Below are positions 45,852 to 50,803 of a DNA stretch of 64,000 nucleotides, piece after piece. This DNA is from an uncultured bacterium. Its GTDB lineage: Bacteria; Methylomirabilota; Methylomirabilia; Methylomirabilales; CSP1-5. The notes below the pieces were generated by a model. The model was not told the DNA's origin. It did not search any database and saw nothing but the letters and a program-made list of their open reading frames with translations. The position numbers and the translations under genes are program-made. The stretch spans positions 13,830 through 77,829 of the forward strand of contig CAZLDS010000003.1 in assembly GCA_964558395.1 (NCBI GenBank), read 5' to 3'. Within the stretch, counting starts at the first letter, position 1; each line of letters starts with the position of its first letter.

Positions 45852-46940
45852 ATGAAGAAGCAGTCCACTCTCGTCCGAAATATCGCGGTTCTGATTCTGG
45901 TGGCGGTCTTCTCGCCGGCCTTCGCCCAGGGACCACCCCCGGTGCCGGTCGAAGTGGCGCCGGTGGTGGAGCGGACGGTCGAGCGGGAAATCCACGCGGT
46001 CGGAACCGTGGAAGCCAATTTGTACACCACCGTGAGTGCTGAGGTAGAGGGAGCGGTAGCGCGGTTTGATCTCCGGGAAGGCGACCGGGTAGAAAAAGGG
46101 CAAGTCCTTGCCCACCTGCAGCGATCCGACCTGAAAATCGGGCTCAAAGAAGCCAAGGCGAATCTTCAGGAAAAGCAGGCGCTCTTCATCAGGGCGAAGC
46201 AAGATTATAAGCGGTTCAAGGAACTTTTCGACGAGGGGGCCGTCAGTGCGGCCGAGCTCGATCGGGTTAAGTCTGTTGCGGATGCTGCCAAAGCACAAAA
46301 GAAATCGGCCGAGGAAGCGTTTGAGAAGGTCGCTGATCAGCTTCGCCGAACGACCGTCGTTGCTCCCTTCAGCGGCTATATGGTGAAAAAGCATGTCGAG
46401 GTTGGCCAGTGGGTCGAGGAAGGCGGCGAGGTGGCGGACCTGGTGGACATCGATACCATCTATGTCGTGATCCCCGTGAACGAGCGCGACGTTGGGAAGA
46501 TCCGCAAGGGAGACGCGGCGACGGTAACCGTGGACGCGTATCCCGGACGCGCCTTCGAGGGACGGATCGCCTACATCGTTCCCCAGGCCGATGTCAGTAG
46601 CCGGAACTTTCCGGTTAAGGTCCGCGTGGACAACGCCCGTGAGCATCTCCTGAAGGCAGGCATGTTCGCGCGCGTGAGCATTCAGTACGGGGAACCACGC
46701 CGCGCCGTCTTCGTCCCCAAGGACGCCATCGTCCTGCGGGGCAAGGAGCAGCTCGTTTTCGTCTTGGACACGGCGCGCGTTCAGGCGAGGCGCGTCGAGA
46801 CGGGACAGGCCCTGGGGGAGCTGGTCGAGGTGGTGCAGGGAGACCTGCAGCCCCGGCAGGAGGTCGTGGTAGCCGGCAACGAGATCTTGCGGGACGGTGC
46901 ACCCGTTGAAGTCCGGCGGAAGGGGGAGGGGCAGCGGTGA
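45852..46940 (+). CDS. RND efflux periplasmic adaptor (membrane fusion protein)
   Basis: Signal peptide, alpha-hairpin region, and lipoyl/beta-barrel motifs (APFSGYM..K.V.VGQWV..G). There is a 4-nt overlap with the RND pump gene. Confidence 0.9.
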   Translation: MKKQSTLVRNIAVLILVAVFSPAFAQGPPPVPVEVAPVVERTVEREIHAVGTVEANLYTTVSAEVEGAVARFDLREGDRVEKGQVLAHLQRSDLKIGLKEAKANLQEKQALFIRAKQDYKRFKELFDEGAVSAAELDRVKSVADAAKAQKKSAEEAFEKVADQLRRTTVVAPFSGYMVKKHVEVGQWVEEGGEVADLVDIDTIYVVIPVNERDVGKIRKGDAATVTVDAYPGRAFEGRIAYIVPQADVSSRNFPVKVRVDNAREHLLKAGMFARVSIQYGEPRRAVFVPKDAIVLRGKEQLVFVLDTARVQARRVETGQALGELVEVVQGDLQPRQEVVVAGNEILRDGAPVEVRRKGEGQR

Positions 46941-49900
46941 AGCTGATCGAGGCCTGCATCAAATACCCGGTCACCGTTCTGGTGGCGGTCCTCCTGGCCA
47001 TCCTCTTCGGTGGGATCGCGCTCCTCCGCCTGCCGTGGCAGATGACCCCGACCATCGACCGTCCGGAGGTCAGCGTGGAGACCGAGTACAAGGGGGCGGC
47101 GCCGCTCGAGGTGGAACAGGAGATCACCGACCGGATCGAGGAGAAGCTCAACTCGGTGGAGAATCTCAACGAGATGACGTCTACGTCCTTCGAGGGAAAC
47201 AGCCGGATCGTCCTCAAATTCGACTGGGGTATCAACAAGGATGTGGCCCGCCTCGATGTTTCGGAGAAACTGGGACTGGTCAAGGATATCCCCCCGGATG
47301 CGGAGGAGTCCATCATCCGGGCGGTCAACACGGACGAGGAAACCCCGATTGCCTGGGTGATCATCAAGACGAACCGTCCCATCAACGAGGTGTGGGAAGA
47401 GGCGGATGATGTGATCCGGCCGCGGCTGGAGCGGGTGCCGGGGGTGGCCACCGTCTGGATGTTCGGCGGAGAGGACCGCGAGGTCCATGTGATCCTCGAC
47501 CCCGAGGCGATGAGTGCGCGTCAGATCTCCGTGGCCCAGGTGCGAGACGCCTTGCTTGGCGAGAACCGGAACGTGAAGGGGGGAAAAATCGACGAGGGGA
47601 AGCGCCAGTACGCGGTCCGGACTCTAGGGCAGTTTACCGATATCCGGCAGATCCCGGACGTGATCATCCGGCAGGATGCGCGCGGTCCCGTCTATCTTCG
47701 CGACATCGCCCAGGTCCGGTTCGGTTACGAGGAGAAGGAACGAGTGGTCCGCGTCTGGGGGAAGCCGACCATCGGCTTCGGCGTGCTGCGTCGGACGGGG
47801 GCCAATACCCTGGAAGTGATGGGGGGCGTCAAGAAGGAGCTTCGGTATCTGAATGATCTATATCAAGGCAAGGACATCGAACTCATCCAGGTCTACGACG
47901 AGACCGAATACATCCATGAGTCGGTGGGCCTCGTGACGACCAACCTCCTCTACGGTTCCTTACTGGCCGTGGCGGTCCTGCTCCTCTTCCTTCGCAGTCC
48001 CTCCAGTATCTTCATCATTGGTTTTGCGATTCCCATCTCTCTCGTGGCGACCTTCGTCGTCCTGGACATGCTGGGGCGCAGCCTCAACATCGTCATGCTG
48101 GCGGGACTGGCCTTCGCCTCGGGCATGGTCGTGGACAACTCCATCGTGATCCTGGAAAACATCTATCGCCACCGGCAGATGGGGAAGGGACGGGTTCAGG
48201 CCGCCTATGATGCCGCTGTCGAAGTATGGGGAGCCGTGCTGGCTTCCACATTAACAACGATGTTCGTCTTCGTGCCGATCCTCTTTGTCAAGGAGGAAGC
48301 CGGGCAGCTCTTTCGCGATATCGCCATCGCGATTTCCACGGCCGTCGCCCTATCGCTCCTCGTTTCTCTGACGGTCGTCCCAATGCTGAGTTCGCGTCTC
48401 CTCGCGGTGAACCGACGCGCGCACAATCCGGCATCGCGTCGGTCTCTGTGGGGATTTTTCGACAGAATCGGGGTGGACCGGTTCGGGGCGAACACGGTTC
48501 AGTACGTCGTCGGGAGTCTGGACTGGCTCCGGCGTGGGGTGCGGCGCCGGGTCGTCGTGGCCGTGACTATCATCCTTGGCGCAGTAGCGCTGAGCTTTCT
48601 CTTCATGCCCCCCATCGATTACCTTCCCCAGGGCAACCGCAATTTGATCTTTGTTCTCATTCGGACCACGCCGGGGCTTAATATCGACCAGCGGGAGGAG
48701 CTGCTCACGGAATTCGAGCGGCGGTTTACCTTGCCCGAAATCTACCGGATGTTCGCGGTAGCCCGGGTGGAGAATACCCTCATGGGCGTCATCGTGAAAC
48801 CCGAGTATCACACCCTGCCGGGGATGCGACGGGTCATCGCCGAGATGCGGGGTCGCGCCCAAGGGGTGCCGGGAACTGAGGGAGTCTTCGTCACCCAGTC
48901 CCCTCTCTTCCGGCGCCGGGGAGCCTTTATCGGGGGGGTGAACCTCGAGGTCCAGGTAAAAGGGGACAACTTGGAGCAGATCCGGGCGATCAGTGACTCG
49001 ATACGGGAGAAGCTCGGTCCCTTTCCCGAGGTCAACTTTGTGAACACCAGCTTCGAAGCGGGCAATCCGGAGCTGCAAGTCCGGATCGACCGCGCCAAGG
49101 CGGCCCAGCTTGGGCTGAGCGCCCGCGAGGTGGGATACGTGATCGAGACCATGGTACACGGGACCGAGGCCGGGCGCTTTCGCGAGGGAGGTAAGGAGCT
49201 GGATATCATCCTCAAGGGCGCGGCGGTAGATCTGCGGCGGACGCAAGATCTGGACGCGATCGTCTTCTTCACCCCGGCCGGGCGTCTGGTGAAGCTCTCG
49301 GACATCGCGACCGCGAGTCTCGATACCGGACCCACCAAGGTTGAGCACATCGACCGCGATCGGGCCGTAACGCTCACGGTGAACTTAAAGGGGGAGGTCC
49401 CCCTGGAGGACGCGATCCGTTTGGTGGAACGAGTCGTCAGCCCGGTTCGAACGGCCCTCCCGTTGGGTTACACCATCGATGTGGCCGGCCAGGCGAAGGA
49501 CCTGAGCATTGCGTGGAACTCGATCAAGTGGTCCTTCCTCCTGGCGCTTGTCGTCATCTACCTACTGATGTGTTCCCTCTTTGAATCCTGGACCTATCCG
49601 CTGATCATCATGTTCTCGGTGCCGTTGGCCGCCACCGGAGGCATCCTAGCTGTCCGGCTGGCGAACTTCTTTGAGCCGGCCATCAAAATGGATGTGATCA
49701 CCATGCTGGGCTTCGTGATCCTGGCAGGGATCGTGGTCAATAACGCCATCCTCATCGTGCACCAGGCGCTGAACAACATGCGCGAGGGATCGGAGGCCCA
49801 AGAGGCGATTCTGGAGAGCGTCCGGACACGGATCCGCCCGATCTTTATGACGACCGCGACCACCGTCTTTGGGATGCTGCCGCTGGTCTTTGCCCGCGGA

Positions 49901-50089
49901 TCAGGGTCGGAGCTATACCGTGGCTTGGGAGCGGCGGTCCTCGGCGGGCTAGTCGTCTCAACCCTTTTCACGCTGATACTCATCCCCGTCCTCTTTTCCC
50001 TTTGGATGGATACCAAACATGTTCTAGCTGCGCGACTCGAAGGGAAGCCCATCGGGCCCGTCGCCCGTGAGGCAGAGAAGTATCCCTAG
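46937..50089 (+). CDS. RND-type efflux transporter (AcrB/HAE family)
   Basis: 1050 aa with a 12-TM AcrB-like layout (MLAGLAFASGMVVDNSIV, GIVVNNAILIV). Confidence 0.93.
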   Translation: MKLIEACIKYPVTVLVAVLLAILFGGIALLRLPWQMTPTIDRPEVSVETEYKGAAPLEVEQEITDRIEEKLNSVENLNEMTSTSFEGNSRIVLKFDWGINKDVARLDVSEKLGLVKDIPPDAEESIIRAVNTDEETPIAWVIIKTNRPINEVWEEADDVIRPRLERVPGVATVWMFGGEDREVHVILDPEAMSARQISVAQVRDALLGENRNVKGGKIDEGKRQYAVRTLGQFTDIRQIPDVIIRQDARGPVYLRDIAQVRFGYEEKERVVRVWGKPTIGFGVLRRTGANTLEVMGGVKKELRYLNDLYQGKDIELIQVYDETEYIHESVGLVTTNLLYGSLLAVAVLLLFLRSPSSIFIIGFAIPISLVATFVVLDMLGRSLNIVMLAGLAFASGMVVDNSIVILENIYRHRQMGKGRVQAAYDAAVEVWGAVLASTLTTMFVFVPILFVKEEAGQLFRDIAIAISTAVALSLLVSLTVVPMLSSRLLAVNRRAHNPASRRSLWGFFDRIGVDRFGANTVQYVVGSLDWLRRGVRRRVVVAVTIILGAVALSFLFMPPIDYLPQGNRNLIFVLIRTTPGLNIDQREELLTEFERRFTLPEIYRMFAVARVENTLMGVIVKPEYHTLPGMRRVIAEMRGRAQGVPGTEGVFVTQSPLFRRRGAFIGGVNLEVQVKGDNLEQIRAISDSIREKLGPFPEVNFVNTSFEAGNPELQVRIDRAKAAQLGLSAREVGYVIETMVHGTEAGRFREGGKELDIILKGAAVDLRRTQDLDAIVFFTPAGRLVKLSDIATASLDTGPTKVEHIDRDRAVTLTVNLKGEVPLEDAIRLVERVVSPVRTALPLGYTIDVAGQAKDLSIAWNSIKWSFLLALVVIYLLMCSLFESWTYPLIIMFSVPLAATGGILAVRLANFFEPAIKMDVITMLGFVILAGIVVNNAILIVHQALNNMREGSEAQEAILESVRTRIRPIFMTTATTVFGMLPLVFARGSGSELYRGLGAAVLGGLVVSTLFTLILIPVLFSLWMDTKHVLAARLEGKPIGPVAREAEKYP

Positions 50090-50175: not shown

Positions 50176-50205
50176 TTGACAACGTGACAATGCAAATGTA
50201 AAAAT
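50176..50205 (+). promoter_or_regulatory. strong sigma70-type promoter candidate
   Basis: TTGACA (50176-50181), a 17-nt spacer ending in TG, then TAAAAAT (50199-50205). Confidence 0.5.
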
Positions 50206-50252
50206 TCCACGCCGGGAACGGTCATCGCCTAGGTATATGAAAGGAGGAACAC

Positions 50253-50534
50253 GTGGCAAAAAGGCTAGAAAACCTGGCCAAGACGGTTGGCGTTGTTCTT
50301 GGCGAACGAAGAAAAGTGGAGAGAGTCGAGAAGAGGCTTGTTGAGACTCTCAATAGAGCGCTGGCCAAAATCGGCTATAGAGTAGTTCCCGTAAAGGGTG
50401 TCGCGCCGACGCGGCGCCGGCGTCGCCGGGCCCGTCGGGCAAAGCCGGCAGGGCGTCCTCGCCGTCGGACACCTGCGCGGCGGCGCGCACGGACTGCGAC
50501 ACGGCGGCGGCGCGCTCGGGCCAAGCGACGGTAA
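50253..50534 (+). CDS. hypothetical 93-aa protein: helical N-terminal half plus poly-arginine C-terminal tail
   Basis: GTG 50253 lies 5 nt after AAGGAGG. The protein reads MAKRLENLAKTVGVVLGERRKVERVEKRLVETLNRALAKIGYRVVPVKGVAP, then TRRRRRRARRAKPAGRPRRRTPARRRARTATRRRRARAKRR. The unit is flanked by a promoter and a terminator. Confidence 0.6.
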   Translation: MAKRLENLAKTVGVVLGERRKVERVEKRLVETLNRALAKIGYRVVPVKGVAPTRRRRRRARRAKPAGRPRRRTPARRRARTATRRRRARAKRR

Positions 50535-50567
50535 GACCAAGTCCCATTCTATTTTTGGGTGCGATCG

Positions 50568-50600
50568 GGGTCACCATTGAGGTGACCCTGTTCTTTTCTC
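50568..50600 (+). terminator. intrinsic terminator
   Basis: Stem GGGTCACC (50568-50575) / GGTGACCC (50581-50588) with a 5-nt loop, then TGTTCTTTTCTC. Confidence 0.75.
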
Positions 50601-50617: not shown

Positions 50618-50803
50618 TTATCCCGGGCTTTCACGAAATCGTTTATGCCTTCTTGATTGCCAAAATAGCAATATACATATCCAGTGTTCTTTGATGTCGA
50701 CCGTGAAGTTCTCGTCTGCGAGGAGGCGGATCATCTCCTCCATACTCTTCTGCCTTTCTGCTTGCGAGGTGCCCGGAAATGCGGTAAATGTATCGAGCGT
50801 CAT
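50618..50803 (-). pseudogene. unidentified gene remnant in AT-rich DNA (shares a roughly 45-nt segment with 55596-55639)
   Basis: 61-aa minus ORF. The first 40 aa look protein-like (MTLDTFTAFPGTSQAERQKSMEEMIRLLADENFTVDIKEH). The remainder is AT-rich and codes nonsense. No family recognised. Confidence 0.3.

Follow-up and report, generated by a model that had tools for sequence, protein, structure and literature searches.

A small Methylomirabilota protein with a predicted coiled-coil helix and a poly-arginine tail is a candidate nucleoid-associated protein

What might a bacterium do with a 93-residue protein that ends in a tail made up largely of arginine? The question is raised by a gene on the plus strand, at positions 50253-50534, of a 64,000-nucleotide stretch of DNA (hereafter the window) from an uncultured Methylomirabilota bacterium of the lineage CSP1-5 (assembly GCA_964558395.1, contig CAZLDS010000003.1, positions 13,830 to 77,829). 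The coding sequence starts with GTG, stops with TAA and specifies 93 amino acids (aa), corresponding to a protein of ~11 kDa with a pI of ~12 and a net charge of ~+32. Methylomirabilota includes nitrite-dependent methane oxidisers as well as abundant soil Rokubacteria, and to our knowledge few bacterial phyla have had chromatin proteins described, this one not among them. With moderate confidence, we read the product of the gene as probably a small, abundant nucleoid-associated protein, a coiled-coil oligomer with polycationic tails that would neutralise and bridge DNA.

We searched for homologues of the 93-aa protein with a word-indexed search and found 13, which are 70-105 aa long and 58-77% identical to it; two of them are labelled Methylomirabilales or NC10. 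An exact look-up of the protein in public assemblies returned no record. In the homologue alignment the N-terminal ~50 aa are conserved, with L5, G17, E18, R19, E26, L33, N34, A36, L37, G41, Y42 and V44 invariant, and N-terminal identity among the NC10 orthologues is ~60-75%. The Arg-rich tail varies in length among close homologues, the indels keep the frame, and the close homologues share a C-terminal RRRARAKK that is followed by the stop codon. The ratio of nonsynonymous to synonymous substitution rates (dN/dS; Nei-Gojobori method, 43 ungapped N-terminal codons, seven loci) was 0.07-0.43 wherever dS was unsaturated. Judged by these substitution patterns, the open reading frame (ORF) is a genuine protein-coding gene under purifying selection. 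A first-pass annotation of the DNA had named observations that would speak against its reading, among them a lack of homologues with a conserved frame and an out-of-frame origin of the arginine tract in GC-rich DNA; such homologues were found, and the tract is in frame and conserved up to the common C-terminal RRRARAKK and stop.

An explanation without any genuine protein has a negligible probability; under it, GC-rich (CGN)n DNA would yield the arginine tract as a frame artefact, or the region would function as RNA. This explanation draws on the GC content of the tail DNA (71-72%; the gene as a whole goes from ~50% in its first half to ~72% in the tail) and on the opposite strand, where the frame at 50375-50524 is likewise Arg-rich. 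It is contradicted by the dN/dS of the N-terminal domain, by the frame, the stop and the terminal RRRARAKK that are kept despite indels, by the conserved Shine-Dalgarno sequence and GTG, and by ~75 homologue clusters with a common N-terminal domain; furthermore, an Rfam scan of the whole window returned one distant tRNA only and no RNA family at the 93-aa gene. In a six-frame scan of the 64-kb window, a density of 23 Arg per stop-free 41 aa was reached only in the tail and its antisense mirror, with at most 16 elsewhere, and the arginine tract is not a by-product of GC-rich DNA. The frame artefact was rejected on the dN/dS values and the conserved frame, a conservation pattern that effectively refutes it. 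The antisense ORF itself (50375-50524 / 50378-50548, minus strand; 49 aa, TTG start, 23 Arg per 41 aa) has neither a Pfam match nor a conserved N-terminal part, and is taken as non-coding, a mirror property of (CGN)n DNA.

The arginine codons of the gene are divided between its two halves: AGA/AGG is used by 6 of the 7 N-terminal arginines and CGN by all 23 arginines of the tail, and across 11 neighbouring genes AGA/AGG is rare, with 42 of 423 Arg codons. Of the six AGR codons, four stand at positions 20, 28, 35 and 43, at which Lys (AAA/AAG) is found in most orthologues. Recent conservative K-to-R transitions therefore account for the split in Arg-codon usage.

We next consider the family to which the protein belongs. 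Comparison of the 93-aa protein with Pfam, NCBIfam, PHROGs, PADLOC and PDB sequences gave no significant family. HMMER was run exhaustively against 1.84 billion representative proteins with a profile restricted to the N-terminal 52 aa, and at E<=1e-3 it returned 78 clusters, of which 75 are genuine and 3 are repeat-protein artefacts (a word-indexed search with a 60-sequence alignment yielded 160 candidates and 6 matches, far below the exhaustive search, and was uninformative). Nearly all proteins of the genuine clusters are 70-140 aa long and carry the module N-terminally. The consensus across the family reads L-x-K-S-V-E-x-L-L-x-E-K-x-A-x-A-x-K-E-K-x-L-V-x-x-L-N-x-x-L-x-x-x-G-Y-x-V-V, in which G41 and Y42 are invariant and E26, L33, N34 and L37 are present in at least 90% of sequences. 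The first-pass annotation had recognised no family, which holds for the curated libraries; the N-terminal profile nevertheless uncovered an uncurated one.

The tails attached to this module differ between members. At least one GRP core is found in the tail of 55 of the 86 family members, and at least two in 27 of the 86. Distant relatives carry canonical AT-hooks (RRGRPPK, RGRPPK, RGRPPG, GRPPGS), up to five per protein, for example with RRGRPPK repeated four times; the best Pfam AT_hook score among the relatives scanned was that of P0045, with 13.9 bits against a cut-off of 17.4. Seven members have a C2H2 finger instead of AT-hooks (C-P-x-C-x-R-R-F-x-x-P-x-H-L-G-R-H-x4-H, with the spacing C-x2-C-x3-F-x5-L-x2-H-x4-H); Pfam zf-C2H2 matched all of the six that were scanned (E 1e-4 to 8e-3), and in some the finger is followed by a Lys/Ala-rich, H1-like tail. 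The fingers of these relatives (P0044, P0058, P0060, P0064, P0067, P0070 and P0078) are of the textbook eukaryote type, not of the Ros/MucR type. Since a constant N-terminal module is joined to alternative, recognised DNA-binding modules, the C-terminal position would be the nucleic-acid-binding part of these proteins and the N-terminus would do something else. This swapping of tails is the main evidence for a DNA-binding role, and implies that the poly-Arg tail of the 93-aa protein occupies what would be the DNA-binding position. The earlier suggestion of a protein that binds nucleic acid or another polyanion thereby gains comparative support from the AT-hook and zinc-finger tails of relatives, and the nucleoid among its proposed targets gains specific support, as relatives exchange the poly-Arg tail for AT-hook arrays or C2H2 fingers.

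A search that started from the distant member P0080 returned at least 156 further 90%-identity clusters, all of them labelled "hypothetical". The P0080 locus is from Rokubacteria, as its threonine synthase shares a 90%-identity cluster with a Rokubacteria protein, and one 1-kb contig with a family member is labelled Nitrospirales. All family loci are GC-rich (50-79%). A scan of viral contigs for relatives found none, so that carriage of the family by phages is unsupported. By these searches the family appears to be undescribed, restricted to Methylomirabilota (NC10 and Rokubacteria) and comparable GC-rich bacteria of soil and groundwater, and homologous to no described family. Three family members (P0167, P0185 and P0224) are annotated by JGI as "colicin import membrane protein", presumably a mis-annotation driven by low complexity. 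We also noted a sub-threshold match of the 93-aa protein to PF18860 (AbiJ N-terminal domain 3) over aa 20-86 with 16 bits, and weak matches to the same profile recur in P0039, P0044, P0070 and P0081 with 12-18 bits, always at profile positions ~97-133; the gathering score of 32.5 bits is reached neither by the 93-aa protein nor by these four relatives, and the similarity could be a shared helix-strand element or a compositional coincidence.

The constant part of the family corresponds in the 93-aa protein to aa 1-47 (50253-50393, plus strand), which AlphaFold2 (AF2) models, periodicity and conservation mark as a predicted self-association, or coiled-coil, domain. It consists of one amphipathic helix (aa 2-38/40) followed by an extended segment with the invariant pattern G41-Y42-x-V-V. 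AF2 with a 14-sequence full-length alignment placed a helix at residues 2-40 with a predicted local distance difference test score (pLDDT) of ~84 and a low-confidence tail, and with a 60-sequence domain alignment it gave a single helix at residues 2-38 with a mean pLDDT of 90, followed by extended G-Y-x-V-V-P. The column hydrophobicity of the module has its peak at a period of 3.5 residues. Apolar positions 8/9, 12, 15/16, 22/23, 29/30, 33, 36/37 and 40 amount to three per heptad, and the remaining core-register positions of the helix are held by a conserved K/R19 and a near-invariant E26. Such a pattern is typical of coiled coils and may point to an oligomer larger than a dimer. A Foldseek search of the helix model against the PDB gave insignificant matches only (E>4), as expected for a lone helix, and a profile search of PDB sequences with the 60-sequence N-terminal alignment gave nothing below E 0.6.

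The disordered polycationic tail spans aa 53-93 (50409-50531, plus strand), as defined by composition and a pLDDT of 53-64, and ends in the clade-conserved RRRRARAKRR. Its 41 residues comprise 23 Arg, 2 Lys, 8 Ala, 4 Thr, 3 Pro and 1 Gly. The tail had been described as containing 25 arginines and no acidic residue; the absence of acidic residues stands, and 25 is the number of basic residues (23 Arg and 2 Lys). The whole of aa 48-93 is predicted to be disordered (pLDDT 53-64) and of low complexity, with no folded domain, and AF2 weakly predicted an Arg-rich C-terminal helix at residues 74-92. A motif count located a G67-R68-P69 core with basic flanks (KPAGRPRRR, aa 64-72; 50451-50459, plus strand), which we regard as an AT-hook-like remnant. 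An AT-hook is defined as a GRP core flanked by K/R, often with a proximal Pro (PMC11354804); the core of the 93-aa protein has the basic flank and the proximal Pro, with Ala in place of R/P before the Gly.

The gene is furnished with strong expression signals of its own. A -35 hexamer TTGACA lies at 50176-50181 (plus strand), is preceded by a conserved T-tract (TTTnC) and is invariant in five orthologous upstream regions. The first-pass annotation had parsed the promoter as TTGACA, a 17-nt spacer and TAAAAAT at 50199-50205; a consensus scan parsed it as TTGACA, an 18-nt spacer and AAAAAT with an upstream TG (10 of 12 matches), that is, an extended -10 element TG-T-AAAAAT at 50197-50205 (plus strand). 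The Shine-Dalgarno sequence AAGGAGG (50241-50247, plus strand) is located 5 nt 5' of the GTG, and AAAGGAGG is invariant in orthologues. A terminator scan identified an intrinsic terminator at 50566-50600 (plus strand), in which a GGGGTCACC-loop-GGTGACCC(T) stem precedes a T-run; the stem-loop (50566-50590) has a 10-bp stem with 7 G-C pairs and a 5-nt loop, and TTCTTTTCT follows it. The stem GGGTCACC/GGTGACCC and the T-run are kept in the orthologous loci L001, L002, L005, L008 and L009. When the five orthologous upstream regions are aligned, TTTnCTTGACA, GTAnnAAT, AAAGGAGG and CGTG alone prove invariant, the remainder having diverged. By expectation the 2-kb region would contain 0.6 promoter-like and 1.7 terminator-like sites, whereas 4 and 7, respectively, were counted. 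The independent unit of near-consensus promoter, AAGGAGG, ORF and terminator that had been proposed for this locus is thus borne out, with every element in its proposed place and the signals footprinted in five orthologous loci.

Because the near-consensus promoter with its extended -10, the strong Shine-Dalgarno sequence and the tight terminator are all conserved, they suggest high constitutive expression of the gene, and its product may accordingly be abundant in the cell. The GTG start is common to the window and the five orthologues (L001, L002, L005, L008 and L009) despite otherwise optimal expression signals, and this conserved start may temper or tune translation. The data directly support the reality of the gene, its family, the N-terminal helix, the swapping of modules and the conservation of these signals.

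How, then, could such a protein act? In the reading that we favour, the amphipathic helix of ~40 residues at the N-terminus would self-associate into a coiled-coil dimer or tetramer through the hydrophobic stripe at three positions per heptad, with K/R19 and E26 in the core register, and each subunit would project a disordered tail with a charge of ~+25. The tails would contact the DNA backbone and the minor groove electrostatically, via one degenerate AT-hook (GRP) and the poly-Arg, and the multivalent oligomer would neutralise, bridge, stiffen or condense DNA and possibly damp transcription of the bound regions. Relatives rich in AT-hooks could plausibly favour AT-rich DNA, which in a GC-rich genome is often foreign, and in genomes as GC-rich as these loci (50-79%) a binder of the AT-rich minor groove can be discriminating; in the clade of the window, binding would probably be less specific and protamine-like. 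We infer DNA as the ligand, oligomerisation and a role in bridging or compaction. A nucleoid-associated protein is operationally defined as a small and abundant protein with genome-wide binding of low specificity (PMC11894785), and the 93-aa protein is small and basic in the operational sense applied to this class.

Several observations weigh against this interpretation. The predicted oligomerisation comes from only a monomer model and heptad periodicity. Just 6 of 14 close homologues have the single GRP core, and the tail of the NC10 clade is almost pure poly-Arg; since so few of the clade's proteins keep the core, their tail would therefore be essentially a generic polycation with a terminal RRRARAKK. 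The 93-aa protein has no match to Pfam AT_hook (PF02178), even at E<=10, and the zf-C2H2 matches of its relatives, at 17-22.5 bits, are below the Pfam gathering score of 25.2. A sequence preference, and a choice of DNA over RNA as ligand, would be extrapolated from distant relatives with 31-50% identity in the N-terminal module, and Arg-rich motifs are classical RNA binders too. Finally, in the NC10 clade the gene is syntenic with an RND efflux operon, which could indicate a local role.

The RNA-binding capacity of Arg-rich sequences leads to the suggestion, which we consider unlikely, that the protein associates with RNA or the ribosome, be it as a small basic ribosomal protein specific to the lineage, as a factor in ribosome hibernation or as an RNA chaperone, with an Arg-rich tail that binds structured RNA. 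Extreme basicity (pI ~12), small size and a monocistronic gene with a very strong promoter, ribosome-binding site and terminator would all suit such a protein; the weakly predicted helix at 74-92 and the conserved terminal RRRARAKK are reminiscent of arginine-rich RNA-binding motifs, and lineage-specific small basic ribosomal proteins in other phyla, such as bTHX and bS22, provide a precedent. However, no ribosomal or RNA-binding family in Pfam or NCBIfam matched the protein, and the tails of its relatives are AT-hook arrays, C2H2 fingers or H1-like and vary widely in length and sequence, unlike ribosomal proteins. Nor do an N-terminal identity of only ~60-75% among NC10 orthologues, the mobile-element settings of some family genes and a second weak copy at locus L013 fit this role. 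A function tied to adjacent genes and not to global chromatin, either the upstream TetR-like/HlyD/AcrB RND operon or the downstream SBP_bac_3 and PilZ genes, is improbable in our judgement. The window, L001 and L002 do share the gene order RND pump, small gene, SBP_bac_3, PilZ; in L005-L007 an MTHFR gene is inserted and the RND operon persists, and in L008 (Ca. Methylomirabilis sp.) and L009 a 192-aa/HlyD/AcrB operon is situated directly 5' of the small gene. Yet the 93-aa gene has its own promoter and terminator, L011 lacks an RND neighbour, the neighbours in the wider family are unrelated, and vertical inheritance explains synteny in one order; moreover, a charge of +32 without a folded sequence-reading domain would be atypical for a specific regulator.

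An acid-free poly-Arg tail on an oligomerising helix would condense any polyanion, and basic-tailed granule proteins such as AlgP and PhaM/PhaF are known, so that the protein might organise polyphosphate granules or drive coacervates. We give this little credence: ppk, CHAD and phasin genes are absent from the conserved neighbourhood, the nearby glgA and glgC act on a neutral polymer, and the AT-hook and zinc-finger modules of relatives are specific for nucleic acid. A link to the adjacent glycogen genes was rejected, these genes being unconserved beside homologues. Very improbable, lastly, is a toxic or antimicrobial-like cationic peptide on a tight leash, an idea of the first-pass annotation, or a tightly controlled toxin from a toxin-antitoxin pair. 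Peptides rich in Arg can act on membranes or be toxic in general, and one distant relative (L013/L014) is found among toxin-antitoxin genes; the 93-aa protein, however, has no signal peptide or hydrophobic segment, for which reason a secreted antimicrobial peptide was rejected, and its gene combines a conserved, near-consensus and constitutive-looking promoter with a conserved chromosomal position among housekeeping genes and no conserved partner gene. Searches of PADLOC and PHROG gave no match, and toxin, defence and phage families likewise returned none, so that the idea was not sustained.

The window as a whole is a chromosomal housekeeping stretch from an NC10/Methylomirabilales host with a GC content of 60%, and contains ffh, trmD, RNase HII, the HlyD/AcrB RND pump, the 93-aa gene, SBP_bac_3, PilZ, glgA, glgC and a Mg-chelatase-like ATPase, with a single copy of the family gene. 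The RND unit comprises three genes, encoding a 192-aa ORF, an HlyD-type adaptor and an AcrB-type pump (45852-50089 in the window; 1017-5848 in L008; 1003-5855 in L009). In NC10 genomes it sits immediately 5' of the small gene, and a gene for an outer-membrane factor was not seen adjoining it. In one NC10 lineage an 80-aa fragment of a PrmA-type methyltransferase lies between the small gene and the SBP gene, on the minus strand (L002 1193-1435, L003 866-1108 and L004 1062-1304; Pfam E 1.5e-19, profile positions 110-187 of 296), and its counterpart in the window, an ORF at 50618-50803 on the minus strand, has no PrmA match.

Distant family genes stand alone among unrelated or variable neighbours. 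In L012 (7599-17543) the member is placed between IS21-type genes and serine recombinases, in L013/L014 it is found among toxin-antitoxin genes and insertion sequence (IS) elements, and in L035 (8535-10070) it adjoins a MobA/VirD2 relaxase. This small sample suggests that some copies of the family travel on mobile elements. These settings resemble the distribution of H-NS-family paralogues, which are reported on plasmids and islands (PMC7074111). On the contig that encodes P0039, a second, weak match to the N-terminal profile (L013 3422-3790, E 1e-5) coincides in part with a called 49-aa gene; this second match could represent a paralogue or a remnant.

Beyond the preferred reading as a nucleoid-associated protein, we tentatively raise a broader possibility, about which we are doubtful: the family could be a further, convergent class of H-NS-like DNA bridgers and xenogeneic silencers, specific to Methylomirabilota (NC10 and Rokubacteria) and built from a minimal coiled-coil oligomeriser of ~45 aa and a fully disordered tail with eukaryote-type AT-hooks or a classical C2H2 finger, and in NC10 methanotrophs a degenerate tail could serve as a bacterial "protamine", condensing the nucleoid through neutralisation of charge. 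In the literature that could be searched, no paper was found that mentions AT-hooks together with NC10, Methylomirabilota or Rokubacteria. If the protein were such an H-NS-like or HMGA-like architectural protein, it would represent another independent invention of the combination of an oligomeriser with a minor-groove-binding or basic tail, and canonical AT-hooks and classical C2H2 fingers would be interchangeable modules of bacterial chromatin. It would also offer an extremely small (~45 aa plus tail) and easily synthesised model for DNA bridging and condensation, and would provide a testable function for several hundred "hypothetical" proteins, some of them mislabelled, in soil and groundwater metagenomes.

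How does the protein compare with known systems? Members of the H-NS/MvaT/Lsr2/Rok class oligomerise through their N-terminal part, have a basic linker and bind DNA with their C-terminal part, which in H-NS and Lsr2 engages the minor groove by means of an AT-hook-like Q/RGR motif (PMC6936261). The family described here is similarly composed of small proteins with an N-terminal helical module, for which self-association is predicted, a basic flexible segment and a putative C-terminal DNA-binding part, and its genes likewise stand alone, with some copies on mobile elements, in GC-rich hosts. However, the 93-aa protein did not match the H-NS, MvaT, Lsr2 or Rok models in Pfam/NCBIfam at E<=10, nor any PDB chain at E<0.6. 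It has a single helix of ~40 aa in contrast to their demonstrated two-site, head-head/tail-tail oligomerisation domain, and in place of a folded C-terminal DNA-binding domain it has a fully disordered poly-Arg tail with one GRP core at most. MucR, a convergent case, is reported to couple an oligomerisation domain to a zinc finger (PMC7710501, PMC9410896), and the zinc-finger relatives of the family likewise pair the N-terminal module with a finger.

For myxobacterial CarD, the title of a paper in a reference list describes the functional equivalence of HMGA-like and H1-like domains (PMC4374960), and to the extent that a title conveys it, this equivalence parallels the AT-hook, poly-Arg and Lys/Ala variants of the family's tails. 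The 93-aa protein differs from HMGA and CarD in that its tail has no acidic segment (no Asp or Glu), it has one degenerate hook compared to three or four canonical ones, and the partner module is a short predicted coiled-coil helix; Pfam detected no CarD_CdnL_TRCF domain in it. The tail itself is reminiscent of eukaryotic protamines and protamine-like sperm nuclear basic proteins, being 56% Arg, with runs of 3-6 Arg split by Ala, Thr or Pro and free of acidic residues, and DNA condensation by charge neutralisation would be the expected physical behaviour of such a protamine-like tail. Unlike protamines, it occurs in a bacterial host, is fused to a conserved helical module and has no Cys for disulphide locking, and the Pfam protamine family did not match the 93-aa protein.

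Mycobacterial HbhA, the heparin-binding haemagglutinin, is a coiled-coil protein with a basic tail and functions as a nucleoid-associated protein. It is larger (199 aa), has an N-proximal hydrophobic segment and a role as a surface adhesin, and carries a tail rich in Lys, Pro and Ala (AKKA repeats) instead of Arg; no sequence similarity was detected between it and the 93-aa protein. By analogy and not by homology, the 93-aa protein would resemble the H-NS-like bridgers, the HMGA-like tail of CarD and HbhA, all of them validated by experiment. Among these HbhA is the closest architectural analogue with experimental support, in that it joins a coiled coil to a Lys/Pro/Ala tail that is both required for sequence-independent binding of DNA and sufficient for it (PMC10665949).

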